Source of the DNA: an uncultured Candidatus Melainabacteria bacterium
GTDB taxonomy: Bacteria; Cyanobacteriota; Vampirovibrionia; Gastranaerophilales; Gastranaerophilaceae
Reading direction: 5' to 3'
NCBI GenBank assembly: GCA_947364235.1
Contig: CANARY010000003.1
Span: 184,868-248,867, forward strand
DNA length: 64,000 bases
Shown here one piece after another: positions 21,799-33,229 of this stretch. The notes under the pieces were generated by a model that saw only the letters and a list, made by a program, of their open reading frames with translations, did no database searches and was not told the DNA's origin. The first letter of the stretch is position 1; every line of letters starts with the position of its first letter. The translations under genes and the position numbers were made by a program.

Positions 21799-21889
21799 AT
21801 AAATTCCTTTTTTACATGTTAAGTTTATCATTTTTCATTAAATATGTAAATTTTTGGTATAATTGTATGAAATTAAGAAAGGCAGAAAT

Positions 21890-22873
21890 ATGAAAAAGAT
21901 AAAAGGCATAATTTTTTGTTCGGTTTTTGCGCTTGCAGCTTATTTTATATGCAAGTGCGGGTTTTGTAAATCGATAAGTCTCAATTCATTAACGCTTGCT
22001 ATAATTGTTGGAATGTTTATTGGAAATGTTTTTAACAAATTGATTCCGGAAAGTTTTAGAGAAGGGATTACGTTTTCTGCGAAACGCTTGTTAAGGGCTG
22101 CAATTGTTTTGTATGGTTTTAGAATAACTTTCCAGCAGATTTTTGCAGTCGGACTTCAAGGCTTCTGGGCTGATGTTATTATGCTGTCAACTACTTATCT
22201 TCTCGGATATTATTTAGGAACGCGGGTTTTTAAACTTGATAAAGATTTATGCATGCTGACTTCAATCGGTTCGTCTGTATGCGGAGCTGCTGCAGTTCTT
22301 GGTACAGATTCAATGCTAAAAGCTGATTCTCATAAAGTTTCACTGGCAGTTTCTACAGTTGTTCTTTTTGGTACTATTTCAATGTTTTTGTACCCTTTTT
22401 TAGCAGGTTTAGGATTTGTACCGGAAAGCGTGTTTGGGATTTATATAGGTTCAACTGTGCACGAAGTTGCTCAAGTTGTTGCAGCTGGAAGCGCCGTTTC
22501 TCCGGCAGTCTGTGATACTTCTATTATTGTTAAGCTTACGCGTGTAATGATGCTTGTTCCGTATTTATTCTTGCTTGGACTTTATTTATCGAAGAAATCT
22601 AAAACCAAAAGGACAAAAGTTCCAATGCCGTGGTTTGCTGTAATGTTTGTAGTTATGTGCGGGTTTAACTCGTTAAACTTACTGCCTCAAGCTGTACAAA
22701 CAGGTATCATTGAATTTGATATTTTCTTGCTTACTGCTGCGATGTTTGGGCTTGGCGTAGAGACAAACTTTGAAAAAATTAAAGGACTCGGATTTAAACC
22801 GATAATGCTTGCAGGAATAATGTTTGTATGGCTCGTTGTGATTGGAGCTTTTACGGCAAAACTATTCGCTTAA
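21890..22873 (+). CDS. YeiH family putative sulfate-export membrane protein
   Basis: LLRAAIVLYGF, GSSVCGAAAV, GSTVHEVAQV, KLTRVMML. Start at ATG 21890. Confidence 0.9.
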   Translation: MKKIKGIIFCSVFALAAYFICKCGFCKSISLNSLTLAIIVGMFIGNVFNKLIPESFREGITFSAKRLLRAAIVLYGFRITFQQIFAVGLQGFWADVIMLSTTYLLGYYLGTRVFKLDKDLCMLTSIGSSVCGAAAVLGTDSMLKADSHKVSLAVSTVVLFGTISMFLYPFLAGLGFVPESVFGIYIGSTVHEVAQVVAAGSAVSPAVCDTSIIVKLTRVMMLVPYLFLLGLYLSKKSKTKRTKVPMPWFAVMFVVMCGFNSLNLLPQAVQTGIIEFDIFLLTAAMFGLGVETNFEKIKGLGFKPIMLAGIMFVWLVVIGAFTAKLFA

Positions 22874-23731
22874 ATGTTTTTTTAAGTTTGTTTTAACTTC
22901 GTTTAAAGGACCGTTATTTGGAGCTGTAAGGTTCTGATAGTATTTTCTAACATAAACAATAGGGAAACGCGGCAGCCATGTAAATTTCATGATAACTCCT
23001 GCTGCATCTGCTCCTTGTGCAAACATAAGCTCATCAATTGTTTGCTCGTAAGCAGGTGAAATTGATGAAAATACTTTTAAGAGATAGTTAGTAGCGCTTA
23101 CACCGTAATAACCTGTTGTAACAACCGGTTTTGAGATAAGCTCGGTTATTGTCAGGTCAGAGTCTTTGTTTGACCATTCTGACCCTTGAACAAGCGTCAG
23201 TTCGTCTTTGTTTGCTCCTTCGATTTCATAAGTCTGACCATTGTAAGTTATTATCATGACATTTGGTTTTGGCATGTAAATATCGTCAAAAATGTTATCT
23301 AAAATCGGCTGGCCGTTGTGGTCAGTGATACCATACTTGAAGTTTTTGTTTGTTAAAAGCATTCCGCCGTAAAGAAGGTCGATTGAAGAATACACAGGAG
23401 GCAGAATTTCAAATCCTTTTTCATCAAAAAGTCCTGTTTTTTCTCCCCGTGTAAGTTTTGCGTATTTGCCTAAAAACCTGTCTGCTCTGTTGTATTTAGG
23501 CTCAACCAAAATGTTTCCGGAATCATCCATTACGCCGAATTTTGAACCGCTTTGAAAAATCCAGCCGGATTCTCCTAAACGGATAAGCTTCTTATATTTT
23601 GCAAGGGTAATTATTTCACCAGCTTCACTTTTCAGTCCAAATTTTCCGTCTTCATTATAAACAGCAGACCTTGCCAGAGAAGCATTCTGGATAATTGATA
23701 ATAATAAGATTAATAAAGCAAACTTCCTCAT
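22862..23731 (-). CDS. WG-repeat exported protein
   Basis: Signal peptide; repeated KFG.(I/L)D..G.....P.Y units. Confidence 0.8.
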   Translation of the reverse strand: MRKFALLILLLSIIQNASLARSAVYNEDGKFGLKSEAGEIITLAKYKKLIRLGESGWIFQSGSKFGVMDDSGNILVEPKYNRADRFLGKYAKLTRGEKTGLFDEKGFEILPPVYSSIDLLYGGMLLTNKNFKYGITDHNGQPILDNIFDDIYMPKPNVMIITYNGQTYEIEGANKDELTLVQGSEWSNKDSDLTITELISKPVVTTGYYGVSATNYLLKVFSSISPAYEQTIDELMFAQGADAAGVIMKFTWLPRFPIVYVRKYYQNLTAPNNGPLNEVKTNLKKHLSE

Positions 23732-23777
23732 AACAAAAGATTAGCACAAAATCAGAAATTTGTGTTAAATTATCTTT
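23732..23777. promoter_or_regulatory. Back-to-back extended -10 elements, each 6 nt from a start codon
   Basis: Minus: TG-C-TAATCT (23738-23743), tttgtt, ATG. Plus: TG-T-TAAATT (23766-23771), atcttt, ATG. No SD. Confidence 0.65.
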
Positions 23778-24311
23778 ATGTCGAGATTGAAACGTAGTTT
23801 TTTTAAGAAAAATACTTTGACTGCGGCAAAAAATCTGCTTGGCTGTGTTTTGTGCAGAAAGATTGACGACGTGGTTTATAAAGGAATAATAGTAGAGACA
23901 GAAGCTTATACTCAAGATGAGCCTTCTTGCCATGCGTTTAAAGGGCTTACTCCAAGATGCGAAGTGATGTTTAGAGAAGGCGGATATTTGTATGTTTATT
24001 TTACTTATGGAATGCATTACTGCATGAATGTTGTTACTGAGCGCGAAGGAAGAGGGTGCGCTGTGTTGATTAGAGCACTTGAACCTCTTGGGTTTGAAGG
24101 AACAAATGGACCTGCAAGGTTATGTAAAGCATTGAATATTACTAAAGAACATAATGGAATTGATTTGACTTTAGAAGATTCGCCTATTTGGATAGAAAAA
24201 GGAAAGAAACCTGATGAAATTGTTGAAACAACAAGAATTGGGATAAAACTTGCTGCAGATTATCCTTGGAGGTTTTATATTAAAAATAACAAATGGATTT
24301 CTAAAAAATAA
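23778..24311 (+). CDS. mpg: DNA-3-methyladenine glycosylase (MPG family)
   Basis: AKNLLG, IVETEAY, YVYFTYGMHYCMN, VLIRALEP, NGPARLC, RIGI, YPWRF. Confidence 0.95.
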   Translation: MSRLKRSFFKKNTLTAAKNLLGCVLCRKIDDVVYKGIIVETEAYTQDEPSCHAFKGLTPRCEVMFREGGYLYVYFTYGMHYCMNVVTEREGRGCAVLIRALEPLGFEGTNGPARLCKALNITKEHNGIDLTLEDSPIWIEKGKKPDEIVETTRIGIKLAADYPWRFYIKNNKWISKK

Positions 24312-24312
24312 T

Positions 24313-26295
24313 TTATACCATCTCTCTTAACTTTTTGAGCTGGTCTCTAATTTGTGCAGCACGTTCAAAATCAAGCAGCTTGGCAGCTTTATGCATATCT
24401 TTTTCCAGTTTTGTTATGAGTTTTGGCAAATCTTTCTTATCAATACCAAGTTCAACCATTTCTTCTGCAACAATATCTTCAAAGTCTCGGTAGCTTGCAA
24501 CAAGAGAAAGAAGGTTGTTTTCGATAGGCTTCTTAATGGTCTGCGGTATAATTCCGTATTTCTTATTATGTTCAAGCTGAATTTCTCGCCTTCTGTTTGT
24601 TTCGTCAATTGCTCTCTGCATAGAGTCTGTGATTTTATCAGCGTACATAATAACTTCACCGCACGCATTACGAGCAGCACGCCCGATTGTCTGTATTAAG
24701 CTTGTATCTGAGCGGAGAAATCCTTCTTTGTCCGCATCCATTATTGCAACAAGAGAAACTTCCGGAATATCAAGCCCTTCTCTTAAAAGGTTAACTCCAA
24801 TTAAAACGTCAAACTCGCCAAGTCTTAAGTCTCTTAAGATTTCGACACGTTCGATGGACTTGATTCCGCTGTGCAGATACCTGACTCTAATACCTTCTTG
24901 CAGGAAGTAATCACATAAGTCTTCAGCCATTTTCTTTGTTAGGGTTGTTATAAGAACGCGTTCTTCTTTCTTTGCGCGTTTTTCGATTTCAGCTTTCAAA
25001 TCAGGGATTTGGGATTCAATCGGCTTAATCGTGATTTTAGGGTCAACAAGCCCGGTCGGCCTGATAATTTGTTCAACCATTTGCTCGGAAGTTTTCTTTT
25101 CAAACTCTGCTGGTGTGGCTGAAATATAAACTTTCTGTCCGACTTTGGCAAAAAACTCTTCGCTTTTTAAAGGTCTGTTGTCTTTAGCACACGGAAGTCT
25201 GAAACCGAATTCAACAAGCGTGTTTTTTCTTGAAGCATCTCCGTGGTACATACCATTTAGCTGCGGAATTGTAACGTGAGATTCATCGATAACTGTCAAA
25301 AAATCGCCCTGAAAATAATCAAGAAGTGTTGCCGGAGCAGAGCCTGGAGGTCTGCGCTCTATTATTCTTGAATAGTTTTCAATACCTGTGCAGTAGCCCA
25401 TTTCTTTTATCATTTCAATATCGTATTTTACTCGCTGCTGAAGCCTTTGTGATTCTAAAATTTTGTTCTGGCTTTCAAGCTCTGCAACGCGATTTTTAAG
25501 CTCTGCTCTAATCATTGCAAGTGTTTCGTCTTCGTTTTCGTCATACGCAATGTAATGAACAGCCGGATAAATCATTACGCTTTCCGGCGCTTCAAGTATT
25601 TCGCCTGTAAGATTGTCTATTCTTACGATTTTTTCAATTTCATCACCGAAAAAATAAATTCTTGTGATGATTTTTTCATAAGCCGGCATTATTTCTAAAA
25701 TATCCCCTCTAGCTCTAAAAGTTGAGCGTTCAAGAACAAGGTCGTTTCTTGTGTATTGCGTCATTACCAGGTGTTTAATCAAATCGGCTCTGTCTAAAGT
25801 ATCTCCGATGCTTACTTTGATTGTTCCTTTAAAATAACTTTCCGGCAAACCTAAGCCGTAAATGCAGCTCACAGAAGCAACAATGATTACATCATTTCTT
25901 TCATATAAACTTCTGGTTGTATTGTGCCTCAAGCGGTCGATTTCTTCATTGATGCTTGCAGATTTTTCGATATAAGTATCGGTTCTAGGAATGTAAGCTT
26001 CCGGCTGATAATAGTCGTAGTAAGAAATAAAATATTCGACAGCATTATTTGGAAAAAGTTCTTTGAACTCGTTATAAAGCTGAGCAGCAAGAGTTTTGTT
26101 GTGTGCGATAATAAGCGTAGGTTTCTGTACTTGCTCGATTACATTGGCAATTGTAAAAGTTTTACCTGAGCCGGTGATACCTAATAAAGTCTGAGTATCG
26201 TCTCCCCGCTTGATTCCTTCAACAAGCTGCTGAATTGCTTTTGGCTGGTCGCCTGAAGGTCTGTATTTAGATACAAGTTCAAATTTTCTGTCCAT
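24313..26295 (-). CDS. uvrB: Excinuclease ABC subunit B
   Basis: GITGSGKT, HNKTLAAQL, YYDYYQPEAY, DESH, QTIGRAARN, C-terminal UVR domain. Start moved to ATG 26295 (MDRKFEL), which has TATAAT 6 nt upstream. Confidence 0.98.
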   Translation of the reverse strand: MDRKFELVSKYRPSGDQPKAIQQLVEGIKRGDDTQTLLGITGSGKTFTIANVIEQVQKPTLIIAHNKTLAAQLYNEFKELFPNNAVEYFISYYDYYQPEAYIPRTDTYIEKSASINEEIDRLRHNTTRSLYERNDVIIVASVSCIYGLGLPESYFKGTIKVSIGDTLDRADLIKHLVMTQYTRNDLVLERSTFRARGDILEIMPAYEKIITRIYFFGDEIEKIVRIDNLTGEILEAPESVMIYPAVHYIAYDENEDETLAMIRAELKNRVAELESQNKILESQRLQQRVKYDIEMIKEMGYCTGIENYSRIIERRPPGSAPATLLDYFQGDFLTVIDESHVTIPQLNGMYHGDASRKNTLVEFGFRLPCAKDNRPLKSEEFFAKVGQKVYISATPAEFEKKTSEQMVEQIIRPTGLVDPKITIKPIESQIPDLKAEIEKRAKKEERVLITTLTKKMAEDLCDYFLQEGIRVRYLHSGIKSIERVEILRDLRLGEFDVLIGVNLLREGLDIPEVSLVAIMDADKEGFLRSDTSLIQTIGRAARNACGEVIMYADKITDSMQRAIDETNRRREIQLEHNKKYGIIPQTIKKPIENNLLSLVASYRDFEDIVAEEMVELGIDKKDLPKLITKLEKDMHKAAKLLDFERAAQIRDQLKKLREMV

Positions 26296-26411
26296 GATAT
26301 AATTATATACACAGGGATAAATTTTTGTAAAATTTTGTAAATAAAGACGCAATTTTTAGCTTTTAGCTCTGTTAAATAAATAGCAATTTTGTATGAAGGA
26401 GATTCAGCCGG

Positions 26412-27296
26412 ATGATTAAGCCTGTCGGGGCATATACAGTAAGCTGTAAAGCGGATAACCATTCAGTGGATAAAACAGGACATTATACTGATCCTATGAT
26501 GAACTGGCCTCTCAGAGGCTGTGCATTTACTAATGAAGTCGGCGAGGCTCTCCGCCCGCTTATCGGAAGTTATGCAAATTTGACCTGGGTCCCGGCTTTA
26601 ATGTATATAGGAGCTGATGTTTATGATAAATATAAAAACGATCAGACACAGTACAGCCCTGACTCTAAAAGAGCTTTGAAACAAGCCATTTTTCAGGGAC
26701 TTGCAAGTGTCGCGCTTCCTGTTGTTGCTGTGAAAATAGGACAAAATATTTTTTCTCAGTTCGGAAAAGTTATGGACGATAAGCTTAGCTTAAATGCAAA
26801 AGAACATATTTCACAAACTGCTGAACATTTTATCGCAAATGGAAAAATGCGTGCGTTTGACGGGCGTGATGAAGAATGCGTAAAAGAGTTTTTATCTCAA
26901 GTTACAGATAGTGCAGATTATCATAATGGAAAGAAACCGGTAAGGCTGTTTAAAGGTGATAAAAAGCAATGTTTTGATAACTATGCAGAAAAAACTATCA
27001 GGGATTTAATTAAGCTTAGAAAAGATTTATTAAAACCTACTGAAGAAGTAAAAGCAGGCGGATGGTATTCAAAATATATAAACGCTCTTAAAGATGGACA
27101 GACTGAAAGTGTTGCTGTAAAAAGCGTTTTAACAAGATATCAAAAAGGTAAAATGCTCAAAGGTAACTTTATTAAAACAATAGGCGGATTTATTGCTCTT
27201 GGGGCTGCGATTAAGCCGATTGATAATTTTGTTGAAAATGTTTTAATCGGTAAATATGTCGGGCCTAAAATTGATAAGCTGAAAAATAATAAATAG
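26412..27296 (+). CDS. MTFP1/MTP18-like membrane protein with a large central insertion
   Basis: Motifs R...TNEVGEALRPL, Y..AD..DK, FQGLASVALP and IKPIDNFVE match the eukaryotic MTP18 family motifs as I recall them, in the same order. AAGGAG SD. Confidence 0.8.
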   Translation: MIKPVGAYTVSCKADNHSVDKTGHYTDPMMNWPLRGCAFTNEVGEALRPLIGSYANLTWVPALMYIGADVYDKYKNDQTQYSPDSKRALKQAIFQGLASVALPVVAVKIGQNIFSQFGKVMDDKLSLNAKEHISQTAEHFIANGKMRAFDGRDEECVKEFLSQVTDSADYHNGKKPVRLFKGDKKQCFDNYAEKTIRDLIKLRKDLLKPTEEVKAGGWYSKYINALKDGQTESVAVKSVLTRYQKGKMLKGNFIKTIGGFIALGAAIKPIDNFVENVLIGKYVGPKIDKLKNNK

Positions 27297-27357
27297 TACA
27301 AAAGAACTACTACTTAAGAAGATTAATAAAGTTCAAGGCTAATGCTAAAATGTAAAT

Positions 27358-27434
27358 GTAAGTCGGAAACAACTAGTGATATTGTCGGATTTCGACGAAA
27401 ATTTGATTAGGCATTGTGTGTGTATTCGGCTTAC
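27358..27434. other. Long imperfect hairpin in an unexplained intergenic region
   Basis: GTAAGTCGGA pairs with TTCGGCTTAC (two G-U); inner ACAA/TTGT, CTAGT/ATTAG and GTCG-gattt-CGAC. Confidence 0.35.
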
Positions 27435-27658
27435 TTCTTAAATAAAAATCTTTTCTTCATAATAATCAGCCTTGCCTCTTTTGTCTCTCTTCCAAAAGGG
27501 GCTTAATTTTGCAATGATCTCTGGTCTTGAAATCTTTATAGCAGAGCCTGATTTTGAGCTGATTGTAAACGTTTTGATTGTTTTTCTTGCATTTTCTTAA
27601 CATCACTACTTATAGCAGGAAGTAGGTGAGGATAAAATGACTAATAATACAAGCTGAA

Positions 27659-29826: not shown

Positions 29827-31164
29827 TTAATTGCCCAAATAAGCTAATGTTTCCATTATGCTGCTTGCAGTAGAGAATACTCTTGAGTTCATCTGAATCA
29901 TTCTTTGAGCAGAAATCATGTTTGTCAGCTCAAAAGCTATATCTACATTGGAGCCTTCATATCCTCCGGTTTCAATAGTGCCGAGTGACATTTCTCCTGC
30001 CATTCCGTAGAAAACTTCTCCTACGTCCGGTCCCCATTGCCATAAGTTATTATTTATTGATACAAGACCTTCTTCGTTTACCATTGTTGCAAGTTCAAGT
30101 ACGAATTCTGCATTTGTCAGTGATGAGCCTGTTGCAGCAACATCAGGACCTGTGATTACGACGCCTTCTGGAGTTGTGTATTTCCATTGAATGCTTTCGG
30201 TTCCATCAACGTATTGAGTAAGAATAGAGCCGTCTTTATAAGTTGCAACAACGATACCGTTTTCATCGATTGTTGCAGAGTCGAGAGAAATACCGTTTCT
30301 ATCGTTATAGTTTACCAAATCTTGCAAAATAACAGTTTGGGTTAGTATATCAGAAGTGCTGGATGCGGCAAGGCCTGTTTGAGCAAGGAAGTTGCTGGTA
30401 GTTCCTTCTTCGCTGTAGCTGATTGTGCCGTTCACTTTGATTATTCCATCTGCAGCGCTGAAGCTTACGCCTTGAACGCCGGAAGCAGCGATTGCGCCGT
30501 TAAAACTGTCAATAATTTCTTGTACAGTAGGATCGCCTTCTGGTACAGTTAAGGTAATGTCTGCACTTTTTGGGTTGCCGTCTGCGTCTGTGCCGGTAAT
30601 TGTGGCAGAGATGTTTCCAGAAGTAATACTTGCATTATTTAATTCGCTGATTTTTTTGCTGCCAATTTCCGGGTCTCCGATGATTTTTGCACTGAGGTTT
30701 TTAGGCACATTAACTGTTTTGTTTGAGCTTGAATTTGAGTATGTGGTTCTTGAAGCGACTACTTTCATTCCGTTTTGAGTAACAAGATTTCCGTCGGAAT
30801 CCATTGAAAAAATCCCATCTCTGGTAAAGTATTGTCTTCCTTCTGCATCTTGAACAACATAGAAGCCGTTTCCGGTAATCATTGTGTCTAAGTCTCTTCC
30901 TGTAGAAACAAATTCGCCTGATACAAAATTTCTTGTAATACCTCCGACTTTAACGCCCAGCCCGATTTGTTTAGGGTTTGTACCGCCGCCGTTTTTAGTT
31001 GCTGCGCTTCCATAAGAAAGGTTTCTTGAATAGAGCGTTTCAAAAGTCATGTTAGCAGATTTAAATGCTGTTGTATTAATGTTTGCAACGTTATTTGCGA
31101 TAACATTAATTTGGGATTGACCGGCGTTTATACCGGTGCTGGCTGTGTGCAATGCTTGTGACAT
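29827..31164 (-). CDS. flgE: Flagellar hook protein FlgE
   Basis: ALHTASTGI...VIANNVANINTTAFK, TGRDLD..I.GNGFY, YFTRDG.F, YEGSNVDIAFELTNMISAQR. Confidence 0.92.
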   Translation of the reverse strand: MSQALHTASTGINAGQSQINVIANNVANINTTAFKSANMTFETLYSRNLSYGSAATKNGGGTNPKQIGLGVKVGGITRNFVSGEFVSTGRDLDTMITGNGFYVVQDAEGRQYFTRDGIFSMDSDGNLVTQNGMKVVASRTTYSNSSSNKTVNVPKNLSAKIIGDPEIGSKKISELNNASITSGNISATITGTDADGNPKSADITLTVPEGDPTVQEIIDSFNGAIAASGVQGVSFSAADGIIKVNGTISYSEEGTTSNFLAQTGLAASSTSDILTQTVILQDLVNYNDRNGISLDSATIDENGIVVATYKDGSILTQYVDGTESIQWKYTTPEGVVITGPDVAATGSSLTNAEFVLELATMVNEEGLVSINNNLWQWGPDVGEVFYGMAGEMSLGTIETGGYEGSNVDIAFELTNMISAQRMIQMNSRVFSTASSIMETLAYLGN

Positions 31165-31685
31165 TATTTAATCTCCTGTGCTGTCTGGGTTGTATTAGGG
31201 GTGTGTTCTTTAACTCCGATGATGTTTCCAATTGAATAAAATTCACCATTAACTTTTACTTTTCCTGTTCCGTCTTTAAAGCTTGCTTCTGTTACAGTGC
31301 CGGTGATTTCTACTGTTTTTGTTTTATCTTTTTCATCAGGAATAGAAATTGTAACGTCTTTTCCAATCAGTGAAAGTGTTTGATTGATTTCTGAGTTAGC
31401 AGTCATGTCGGCGTAAATAGCTGACATATAGGTCATGCAGTCTTTTAATCCTGTATTCATTTGCGTCATCTGTTCCAATGAAGAATATTGAGCTAATTGT
31501 GCCAGCCATTGAGCGTTATCTGTAGGCTCTGTAGGGTCTTGATTCTCAAGCTGTTTAAGCATTAGAGTTAAAAACATATTACTGTCAGTAACATCGGATG
31601 ATGTTGTTCTTTTTTTCATCTCGTCTGCTTTTTGAGTGGCAGTCATATTCTGCATGTTTGTTATACTATCTGTAACTGTGGTCAT
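31164..31685 (-). CDS. flgD: Flagellar hook-capping protein FlgD
   Basis: FLTLMLKQLENQDPTEP, AQLAQYSSLEQM, LSLIGK.V. Confidence 0.95.
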   Translation of the reverse strand: MTTVTDSITNMQNMTATQKADEMKKRTTSSDVTDSNMFLTLMLKQLENQDPTEPTDNAQWLAQLAQYSSLEQMTQMNTGLKDCMTYMSAIYADMTANSEINQTLSLIGKDVTISIPDEKDKTKTVEITGTVTEASFKDGTGKVKVNGEFYSIGNIIGVKEHTPNTTQTAQEIK

Positions 31686-31707
31686 AACCTTCTCCCAATT
31701 TTAATTT

Positions 31708-32784
31708 TTATACTTCACCATTTTCTGCAAAAGCCATTGCTTGTTCGAATTGTTCTTTATCTTTTCTTTCTTTTTGCGAACCTTGCTCTCTTTTTCCTTG
31801 ATTTTGATTTTCGTCTTCTGTCCAGTCAGGGTTGTATTCGCTTTCTTGTGTGTCGTTTAGTTTTACAGACACGTTATCAATATTTACACCGTGTGACAAA
31901 AGAGTTTCTTTAAGTCCGTCTAAGCCTTTCATGATTAAATTTCTGGCTTCTTGTGTTGCAACTGTAAATTGTGCTGATAACCCTTCTTTGGTATTAATGA
32001 GCTGAATTGAAACTTTGCCTAAAGACTCTGGATTTAGAACCATGCTTACCTTTGAGCCGGATTTCATACCTTCCATTTGTTTCGTAATTTGCTCAATAAT
32101 TTTACTTGGATTGGTTTCTTGAGTTTGTACTGGTTTTTGTGCCGGCTGAACTTCAGCTGGTTTGATTTCCGGTTTTATCTCTGCAAAATCTGTATCAGTC
32201 TGGAGCATAATTTTTAACCCCTGTTCTTGAGGAGTCTGGTTTTTCAATAAATCTGAACCCGAATTGCCGCTTTCAGCTTCTAAAGATTCGATATTTAATT
32301 CTTTTAAGATATCTTCATCTACAAGTTCTTCAATAGCCTTGCCGTTTTCTGTGTCGTCGGTTTTATTGGTTTTGTCTCCTTTATTTATCTCTGTTTGAAC
32401 AACCGCAGAAGTTTTTGTATCGATATTATTTGTATTAGTGATTTTTACGGGAATTTCTGCAAGTGATTCATCTTCTTGAGATGTTTCCGGTACTTTTGCT
32501 TCGACTTCTTGTGTGTCTTCTGTTTGAGCTGGAGTGATTATTTGAAGAATTCCGCTTAAAACTTGTTCTGTTTCAGCTTCAGAAACAGTGTTTTCGCTTG
32601 TTTCGTCTTCACTTGTTTTATCTTCAGAAATAACGGTTTCTGTATCAACAGTTTCTTTTGGTTTATCAGAAGCTGTTTTCTTATCAAATAATGTTTGAAA
32701 GTTTGCAATAGGACTGTTTTCTTGAGTTTTTACAAGTTCCGAATTTGTTATATTAATATTATTATTTGCTAAAGCTTGAACCAT
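31708..32784 (-). CDS. fliK: Flagellar hook-length control protein FliK
   Basis: Acidic low-complexity N-terminus; C-terminal MVLNPESLGKVSI...L...LKETL..HGV motif. Confidence 0.88.
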   Translation of the reverse strand: MVQALANNNINITNSELVKTQENSPIANFQTLFDKKTASDKPKETVDTETVISEDKTSEDETSENTVSEAETEQVLSGILQIITPAQTEDTQEVEAKVPETSQEDESLAEIPVKITNTNNIDTKTSAVVQTEINKGDKTNKTDDTENGKAIEELVDEDILKELNIESLEAESGNSGSDLLKNQTPQEQGLKIMLQTDTDFAEIKPEIKPAEVQPAQKPVQTQETNPSKIIEQITKQMEGMKSGSKVSMVLNPESLGKVSIQLINTKEGLSAQFTVATQEARNLIMKGLDGLKETLLSHGVNIDNVSVKLNDTQESEYNPDWTEDENQNQGKREQGSQKERKDKEQFEQAMAFAENGEV

Positions 32785-32785
32785 T

Positions 32786-33229
32786 TTATCCTATCTTAAA
32801 TCTTGCTGATGTAATATCGTCTATTTCTTTCATTTCTGAGTTTAGAAACTCTTTATAATACGCTTTTTCTTGTTTTTCTTTAAGCTTTTTTAATACTTCA
32901 ACTTTCTGGTGAGCTTCTTTAACTTCTTGCTGTTTTCGGGTGAGAATAGCTTTTGTGTTATTAATTATTCTTTCCTGATTTTGAGCATCAACTACGAGTT
33001 TTATACCAAAAGTTCTGTGTTCTTCCAGCTGAAAGATATCCAGATTTTCAGATGTTGCAAGAGCTTCTTGTCTTGCGGTGTTATCTTGCTGGTGCTGGAT
33101 AATGTTTTGAAGCTTTTCCTGCTGTTGATTTAGAGCTGTAACAATTTTAGACATTTCCATCTGACGTTCTTCAAGCTCTTTTTCACGCATGTCAAGCACA
33201 ACCTGCAGCCTGAATTTAAACTTCTTCAA
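32786..33229 (-). CDS. fliJ: Flagellar export protein FliJ
   Basis: MKKFKFRLQVVLDMRE, coiled coil, EKLKEK, KEIDD; TTG start after an AAGG SD. Confidence 0.85.
   Translation of the reverse strand: MKKFKFRLQVVLDMREKELEERQMEMSKIVTALNQQQEKLQNIIQHQQDNTARQEALATSENLDIFQLEEHRTFGIKLVVDAQNQERIINNTKAILTRKQQEVKEAHQKVEVLKKLKEKQEKAYYKEFLNSEMKEIDDITSARFKIG

Follow-up and report, generated by a model that had tools for sequence, protein, structure and literature searches.

A bacterial member of the MTP18/MTFP1 family in the Gastranaerophilales

MTFP1, also called MTP18, is a small inner-membrane protein of mitochondria, about 166 amino acids (aa) long, that is studied medically in connection with heart failure, liver steatosis and cancer. 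To our knowledge, the family has been thought to occur in eukaryotes only. Here we describe a gene for a member of this family in a stretch of 64,000 nucleotides (nt; hereafter the window) from an uncultured Candidatus Melainabacteria bacterium of the Gastranaerophilaceae (Vampirovibrionia), a non-photosynthetic cyanobacterium of the mouse gut. The gene is a 294-aa open reading frame (ORF) with an ATG start at positions 26412..27296 of the + strand. An earlier note, made from the letters of the window, had proposed that it encodes a bacterial homolog of MTFP1, and this proposal is borne out by Pfam, by profile–profile alignment with hhalign, by a hidden Markov model (HMM) built from vertebrate sequences only and by structural matches to viral proteins. 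We regard true membership of its product in the MTP18/MTFP1 family as virtually certain.

The literature on the function of MTFP1 is divided. The protein has been described as promoting mitochondrial fission through DRP1, in work cited in a passage of PMC7050145, and its presence in the jakobid Andalucia (PMC7050145) indicates that it is old in eukaryotes. In mouse heart and mouse embryonic fibroblasts (MEFs), MTFP1 is dispensable for fission; it limits ANT-dependent proton leak and opening of the mPTP, the permeability transition pore of mitochondria, both of which increase upon its loss in the mouse (bioRxiv 10.1101/2021.10.21.465262). A further study calls it a fusion inhibitor and an effector in prohibitin-rich subdomains of the inner membrane (bioRxiv 10.1101/2025.01.05.631328). 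Known partners of the eukaryotic protein are DRP1, FIS1, OPA1, ANT and MISO. We set aside a 2025 review (PMC12477198) as a source on MTFP1, because the GTPase domain at residues 101–300, the transmembrane domains at 400–500 and the 'MTFP2' paralog that it reports are impossible for a protein of 166 aa; it apparently conflates MTFP1 with the mitofusins.

The only Pfam family matched by the window protein is MTP18 (PF10558), at an E-value of 2e-6 and 28.3 bits (gathering cut-off 25), in two stretches that cover both halves of the profile. It has no match in NCBIfam, PDB sequences, PADLOC or PHROGs. The Pfam model is broad and gives vertebrate MTFP1 itself only 69–73 bits; 37 of 55 diverse bacterial relatives match it individually (E<=0.01, the highest score being 38.5 bits), without a second family that turns up repeatedly among them. 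Eukaryotic sequences were collected with human MTFP1 used as bait only. The best 120 of the 1,058 database proteins are vertebrate, and those of them that carry a name are called 'mitochondrial fission process protein 1' (NCBI/UniRef). The human MTFP1 strings that the earlier note had quoted agree with proteins bearing this name, such as that of the giant panda (P0272).

Profile comparisons support the same relationship. The 55 diverse bacterial relatives align with 25 vertebrate MTFP1 sequences at 98.8% probability in hhalign (E 1.2e-16) over 100 columns corresponding to the N-terminal core, and 15 insert-free bacterial forms are homologous to vertebrate MTFP1 from end to end (99.2%, E 1.5e-19, 152 columns spanning MTFP1 columns 7–163 of 171). 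Conversely, the vertebrate-only HMM detects 86 of 150 bacterial representatives, the best at 66.8 bits (E 1.6e-20). The similarity is also visible in pairwise BLASTP searches, with giant-panda MTFP1 matching the window protein at 33% identity over 80 aa (E 3e-7) and the bacterial protein P0209 at E 5e-16 with all four conserved blocks aligned.

Bacterial and eukaryotic proteins share these four blocks in collinear order, and 24 positions are common to vertebrates and bacteria (D, R.L.Y.NEVG, Y..AD..DK.K, Q..ASV..P, G and PID..V). The window protein retains 22 of the 24, the exceptions being C37 and F39, and contains the signature motifs NEVGEA, AD..DK.K, Q.LASV..P and PID..V in the same order. 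All four peptide blocks that the earlier note had picked out are present in the translation, where they are split by a hydrophilic helical insert of ~129 aa (residues 121–249). With a length of 294 versus ~166 aa and this insert before its last helix, the window protein departs from the compact architecture of ~160–200 aa with a short loop at that point. It is an architectural variant of MTP18/MTFP1 whose insert is no argument against homology. The features of the gene and its flanks are as follows, with the basis of each in brackets.

26296..26411, no strand: divergent intergenic region common to the MTP18-like gene and uvrB (sequence)
26306-26333, + strand: weak sigma-70-like candidate site, 9/12 matches (consensus match only)
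26395..26401, + strand: Shine-Dalgarno sequence GAAGGAG, 10 nt upstream of the ATG (read directly in the sequence)
26412..27296, + strand: coding sequence for the family member, 294 aa followed by a stop codon (ORF listing, Pfam, hhalign)
26412..26483, + strand: variable and polar N-terminal tail, aa 1-24 (low model confidence)
26484..26771, + strand: N-terminal MTFP1-like core, aa 25-120 (Pfam, hhalign, structural model, BLASTP)
26490-26567, 26601-26636 and 26685-26720, + strand: blocks 1, 2 and 3 of the earlier note (aa 27-52, 64-75 and 92-103)
26772..27158, + strand: lineage-specific helical insert, aa 121-249, with 25 lysine plus arginine and 20 aspartate plus glutamate residues (alignment, structural model)
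27159..27281, + strand: C-terminal MTFP1-like core, aa 250-290, made up of the hydrophobic helix H4 and its motif G.A.LA...KPID..VE (hhalign, structural model, alignment)
27174-27245, + strand: block 4 of the earlier note (aa 255-278)
27382..27398, + strand: candidate terminator-like hairpin, 86 nt past the stop codon (consensus scan only)
27483-27502: second candidate terminator-like hairpin (consensus scan only)

In the N-terminal core, an amphipathic helix H1 bearing the NEVGEA motif is followed by a hydrophobic helix H2 that ends with GAD..DKYK and, after a short loop, by a hydrophobic helix H3 with FQ.LASV.LP. An AlphaFold (AF2) model based on the 55-sequence diverse alignment, with a predicted local distance difference test score (pLDDT) of 88.9 and a predicted TM-score (pTM) of 0.81, contains very long helices at residues 35–75, 85–120 and 232–292 together with a four- to five-helix insert, the last helix of which is continuous with the C-terminal membrane helix. 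A model from 21 close homologs only was poor (pLDDT 56.6), and its PDB search was uninformative. A fold search of the PDB, which holds no MTFP1 structure, with the better model found no resembling structure (best E 0.18). In the viral structure library BFVD, the top match is a Tupanvirus 'Mitochondrial 18 kDa protein' (probability 1.00, weak E 0.046), and a Yasminevirus 'MTFP1-like' protein is also recovered (probability 1.00, root-mean-square deviation of 6.9 Å over 117 columns, weak E 0.41). TM-scores for the BFVD matches annotated as MTP18 range from 0.26 to 0.42. These weak E-values and low TM-scores are due in part to the insert, and despite them the first place of MTP18-annotated proteins in the whole viral library provides independent support for homology.

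Family-averaged hydropathy reveals three moderately hydrophobic segments (~45–66, 93–112 and 254–275), each with a near-invariant mid-helix proline (P61, P103 and P269). H1 is strongly amphipathic (hydrophobic moment 1.11), and the conserved charged clusters GAD..DKYK and KPID..VE lie at helix ends. The protein has neither a lipobox nor a signal peptide, and residues 1–24 contain no signal-peptide-like hydrophobic stretch. We consider it very likely that the window protein is a stand-alone integral-membrane protein. It probably forms a three-helix bundle in the cytoplasmic membrane, which corresponds to the inner membrane of mitochondria. Like eukaryotic MTFP1, it would then be a small all-helical protein of an energy-coupling membrane.

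The loop between the N-terminal core and the last helix is hypervariable within the bacterial family, ranging from 11 to 247 aa across complete representatives, or from 3 to 234 aa by stricter boundaries. Short bacterial forms of 176–252 aa, including P0152, P0178, P0192, P0195 and P0209, belong to the same bacterial clade as the window protein and share its motifs, but carry only a lysine-rich linker of 3–46 aa at the insert site. Their architecture is thereby that of MTFP1, and those of 176–220 aa also show its compact size. By hhalign (98.2% and 97.6%), the long inserts found in three long-form clades are homologs of each other. Two other well-supported clades (bootstrap 95% and 98%) have inserts of 76–121 aa that are related neither to the long insert nor to one another. 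The short forms P0178 and P0152 nest within long-insert clades (bootstrap 75% and 62%), P0152 being a syntenic ortholog of long forms, and the syntenic ortholog at locus L065 lacks the whole insert with both cores intact. Together, the unrelated inserts, the insert-free L065 and the nested short forms indicate an insertion hot spot: the loop has been elaborated in at least three independent events, with secondary loss as well. Short forms predominate among the earliest bacterial branches (92–96 of 100 bootstraps).

Selection acts on both parts of the protein. The ratio of nonsynonymous to synonymous substitution rates (dN/dS) is 0.016 in the core and 0.073 in the insert (77–82 pairs), and both are under strong purifying selection; by this measure, the insert of the window protein appears to be functional within its clade. 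The suggestion that the insertion is a new domain for the family stands insofar as the window-type insert is absent from vertebrate and giant-virus MTFP1. It does not hold as a fixed feature of the bacterial proteins, since the short forms lack the insert and at least three unrelated insert types occur.

The family is small and taxonomically narrow. A word-indexed search returned 560 clusters at 90% identity (E<=1e-3); nearly all of the 120 clusters listed have a precomputed PF10558 match, and none of these 120 has a protein name. An exhaustive HMM search of 1.84 billion representatives at 50% identity returned only 262 proteins, which indicates how small the family is. A pattern-limited scan that took one genome for each GTDB species located the gene in 64 genomes, with titles that read Gastranaerophilales, Melainabacteria, Vampirovibrio, 'Cyanobacteria bacterium' or the generic 'uncultured bacterium', and in two cases Muribaculaceae. 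Scanning metagenomes brought 80 more loci, many of them from the human gut, and Candidatus Spyradomonas, a Gastranaerophilaceae genus, is a further named member. Every named family member is annotated as 'hypothetical protein'. All credibly named sources are Gastranaerophilales/Melainabacteria, in which the gene is kept by vertical descent as a single copy in at least 64 species. Viral contigs scanned with the bacterial profile yielded no bacterial-type relative, whether from phages or from other viruses.

Several individual records deserve comment. The metagenome-assembled genome (MAG) that holds L065 is labelled Heliobacteriaceae, but genes downstream of its short form are 59–69% identical to, and syntenic with, those of Gastranaerophilales L061 and L062. 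The label is therefore probably mistaken. Two further loci assigned to Muribaculaceae, L032 and L063, hold the same Melainabacteria-type gene, and their labels likewise look wrong. On L145, a 1.7-kb metagenome contig, two ORFs match the bacterial MTP18 core profile; the pair could be a tandem duplicate or a frameshift-split gene.

Giant viruses represent the other occurrence of the family outside cellular eukaryotes. Using the vertebrate MTFP1 profile on IMG/VR, we found 28 viral contigs (L154–L181), some with giant-virus MAG identifiers, that encode full-length MTFP1 homologs of 195–227 aa. These proteins share 34–42% identity with vertebrate MTFP1 and have an arginine-rich, presequence-like N-terminus and an extra C-terminal hydrophobic segment. 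Together with the Tupanvirus and Yasminevirus proteins, they belong to the same family as the bacterial proteins and include the best structural matches to the bacterial model; short bacterial forms align with giant-virus MTFP1 at 99.3% in hhalign (E 8.5e-21). The giant-virus copies are eukaryotic in type (38% identity to vertebrates versus 24% to bacteria) and differ from the window protein in having no insert in the H3–H4 loop.

We built a neighbor-joining tree (146 columns, 100 bootstraps) in which the eukaryote side consists of vertebrates and giant viruses only. Bacteria and vertebrates each separate from the rest in 100 of 100 bootstraps, and giant viruses in 98. Median identities are 22.9% between bacteria and vertebrates, 23.6% between bacteria and viruses and 38.0% between vertebrates and viruses, and identity within the bacteria falls to 17.6–17.7%. 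In 92 of 100 bootstraps, the deepest bacterial branch leads to a form with a short linker. A separate bacterial clade, equidistant from both eukaryote-type groups, argues against recent capture from animals or from these giant viruses. An old transfer from a eukaryote to a bacterium has, in our estimation, an even chance of being correct; it is the more parsimonious direction because the named members fall in one bacterial order, as against a pan-eukaryotic spread. An origin of the family in the Vampirovibrionia, a non-photosynthetic cyanobacterial lineage, with donation to the stem eukaryote seems doubtful. It would be consistent with a bacterial diversity (to 17.6% identity) as deep as the distance between bacteria and eukaryotes, with a bacterial clade that is nested in neither eukaryote-type group and with MTFP1-sized short forms that branch first.

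To place the gene in its genomic context, we surveyed 153 loci in 24 subfamilies (55% identity). No neighbor family is linked to more than 3 of the 24 subfamilies, and there is no conserved operon; the commonest neighbor, uvrB, occurs at 37 loci in 3 subfamilies, and the gene usually stands as a monocistronic unit. One exception is an early-branching short form of 231 aa (P0238/P0409), which in two samples from a single lineage is embedded in a kdp operon in the order kdpA-kdpB-kdpC-[MTP18-like]-kdpD, on one strand and with gaps of 3–61 nt (L068:5612-12646 and L182:255-7273). The adjacent KdpD has KdpD/Usp/DUF4118/GAF domains and no kinase domain listed.

Overall, the best explanation of these observations, to which as a whole we assign a probability of roughly 55%, is that the gene encodes a vertically inherited member of the MTP18/MTFP1 family, probably a three-helix protein of the cytoplasmic membrane, for which we propose the role of a scaffold. 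The protein would be a small, self-associating scaffold in the cytoplasmic membrane that performs the partner-independent share of the MTFP1 role. By restricting the leakage of ions, by marking out membrane subdomains or by both, it would organize the energy-coupling membrane or make it tighter. Its variable loop or insert probably faces the cytoplasm and would give each lineage a docking platform of its own. We propose a scaffold because the protein has no catalytic or transporter signature, with no match to an enzyme or transporter family in Pfam, NCBIfam, PADLOC or PHROGs, because its helical core is constrained and bears charge clusters at the membrane interfaces, and because its loop accepts almost anything, tolerating 3–250 aa, at least three unrelated inserts and clean loss in a syntenic ortholog. 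By analogy, the kdp-embedded homolog and the phenotype of MTFP1 loss in the mouse give a hint of an ion- or leak-related role. The mechanism of scaffolding and leak control is the more tentative part of this explanation, and we hold it to be less likely than not.

Several observations weigh against the scaffold interpretation. The hydrophobicity of the helices is modest, with family-average peaks of 0.9–1.2 in a 19-residue window, and charge counts are net positive on both faces and thus favor neither orientation in the membrane. No functional partner emerges from the gene context of the 153 loci, and the kdp linkage is restricted to one species-level lineage (1 of 153 loci) and may be incidental. 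In mammals, the phenotypes of MTFP1 depend on the partners DRP1, ANT, MISO and PHB. Finally, two runs marked 'RNA?' look like DNA at this locus, with flat depth over genes and spacers and a 157-kb contig, and probably are DNA.

Among alternative functions, a cation (K+/H+) homeostasis accessory, that is, a small membrane subunit modulating an ion pump or a leak pathway, would account for the short form within the kdp operon, for the conserved acidic and basic residues at the membrane interfaces and for the greater proton leak and mPTP opening seen upon MTFP1 loss in the mouse. The rarity of the kdp linkage speaks against such a role, as does the fact that the kdp-embedded member is the most divergent in its motifs, with NDIREA in place of NEVGEA and no DKYK. 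The other contexts are all unrelated housekeeping genes: the window gene has no kdp gene nearby, and placement in a kdp operon is not consistent across the 153 loci. We therefore consider this role unlikely.

A factor for cell division or membrane remodeling that works with SepF/FtsZ, as a bacterial counterpart of 'fission', is distinctly unlikely. The idea draws on the first description of the eukaryotic relative as pro-fission, as cited in the passage of PMC7050145 mentioned above, on the amphipathic H1, which could bind or bend membranes, and on sepF and yggS, whose proximity had been advanced in the earlier note. In the window, these two genes lie 1.1–1.6 kb downstream, but on the opposite strand and behind a helix–turn–helix (HTH) gene. 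They are near the MTP18-like gene in only 2 of the 64 genomes, and no division gene recurs among the neighbors at the 153 loci, so that proximity does not carry the argument. Moreover, the dispensability of MTFP1 for fission in mouse heart and MEFs means that 'fission' is no secure ancestral function.

The earlier note had also suggested a eukaryote-derived gene, possibly for an exported effector; mitochondria of the host or of protists would be its target. Outside these bacteria, the family is known from eukaryotes and giant viruses, giant viruses plausibly aim their copies at host mitochondria, and these bacteria inhabit animal guts beside eukaryotic cells. The protein itself does not look like an effector: three of its long helices are hydrophobic, signal peptide and lipobox are both absent and, unlike the viral copies, it has no arginine-rich presequence. 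The gene is single-copy, conserved by vertical descent in at least 64 species with a core dN/dS of 0.016, and its composition equals that of its neighbors (GC content 0.365; GC content at third codon positions, GC3, 0.271). The bacterial proteins form one clade equidistant from both eukaryote-type groups, which argues against recent capture, and we regard an exported effector as highly improbable.

A chance or compositional match between hydrophobic helices of MTFP1 and an unrelated membrane protein, to which the margin of just 3 bits over the Pfam cut-off for the single sequence and the weak Foldseek E-values against viral MTP18 (0.046 and 0.41) might point, is refuted by hhalign, the vertebrate-only HMM that recovers 86 of 150 members and the giant-virus profile comparison, with profile–profile E-values of 1e-16 to 1e-21 against two independent eukaryote-type groups, four collinear matching blocks rich in polar residues and MTP18-annotated proteins as the top structural matches in the whole viral library.

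The MTP18-like gene of the window lies on the chromosome as an ordinary monocistronic unit and has a ribosome-binding site of its own. By Pfam, its neighbors encode a WG-repeat protein, a methylpurine glycosylase and, divergently, UvrB; downstream, on the opposite strand, lie genes for an XRE-type HTH protein, SepF, a YggS-like protein and a FlgE-type hook protein. The 362-nt spacer 3′ of the gene (27297-27658) contains no ORF of at least 50 aa and no Rfam match, and the whole 64-kb window has zero Rfam matches at the gathering threshold. Window positions 22862-27510 are collinear with an independent mouse-gut MAG (L001) at 86% nucleotide identity, and many mouse-gut sequencing runs contain the locus. 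The locus is therefore no assembly chimera, the circumstance that the earlier note had named as one that would undo its proposal.

Other details of the region concern its neighbors. The ORF listing extends uvrB to a TTG at 26352 (window 24313-26352, 679 aa); a start at the ATG at 26295 (660 aa) agrees with the UvrB domains, and a divergent putative promoter region of 116 nt, shared with the MTP18-like gene, then remains between the two. Relative to L001, the window carries an additional ~1 kb (21808-22861, with a 327-aa ORF at 21890-22873), and at 27510-27554, between the MTP18-like and HTH genes, L001 has ~1.6 kb extra. A run of flagellar genes (the FlgE-type hook protein and further ORFs on the same strand, 29827-33190) is consistent with a motile Gastranaerophilales bacterium.

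In the full-text literature, we found no paper that connects MTP18/MTFP1 with Melainabacteria, Gastranaerophilales, prokaryotes or giant viruses, nor one that cites PF10558. Bacterial membership of the family is latent in automatic Pfam assignments and hence is not strictly new, yet it appears undescribed. The new observations are the bacterial clade, the hypervariable loop and the kdp-embedded member.

The bacterial protein is a rare prokaryotic relative of a mitochondrial-dynamics protein, and it is found in Melainabacteria rather than in Alphaproteobacteria. Copies in Melainabacteria, eukaryotes and giant viruses imply that the family has crossed between domains at least once, and the direction of transfer is now a testable question. 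If the family were of bacterial origin, a regulator of the mitochondrial inner membrane would have arisen outside the eukaryotes and would not stem from Alphaproteobacteria either; its ancestral, partner-independent control of membrane permeability or organization would survive in the short bacterial forms. The hypervariable loop (3–250 aa, at least three independent inserts) marks the part of the fold that is free to take up modules. Conflicting roles have been assigned to MTFP1: it is said to promote fission, to inhibit fusion, to hold back proton leak and mPTP opening, and to act as an effector in subdomains of the inner membrane. A homolog outside any mitochondrial setting would surprise specialists in mitochondrial dynamics; it offers a stripped-down system for the activity of the conserved three-helix core itself and makes the core activity of MTFP1 directly testable.

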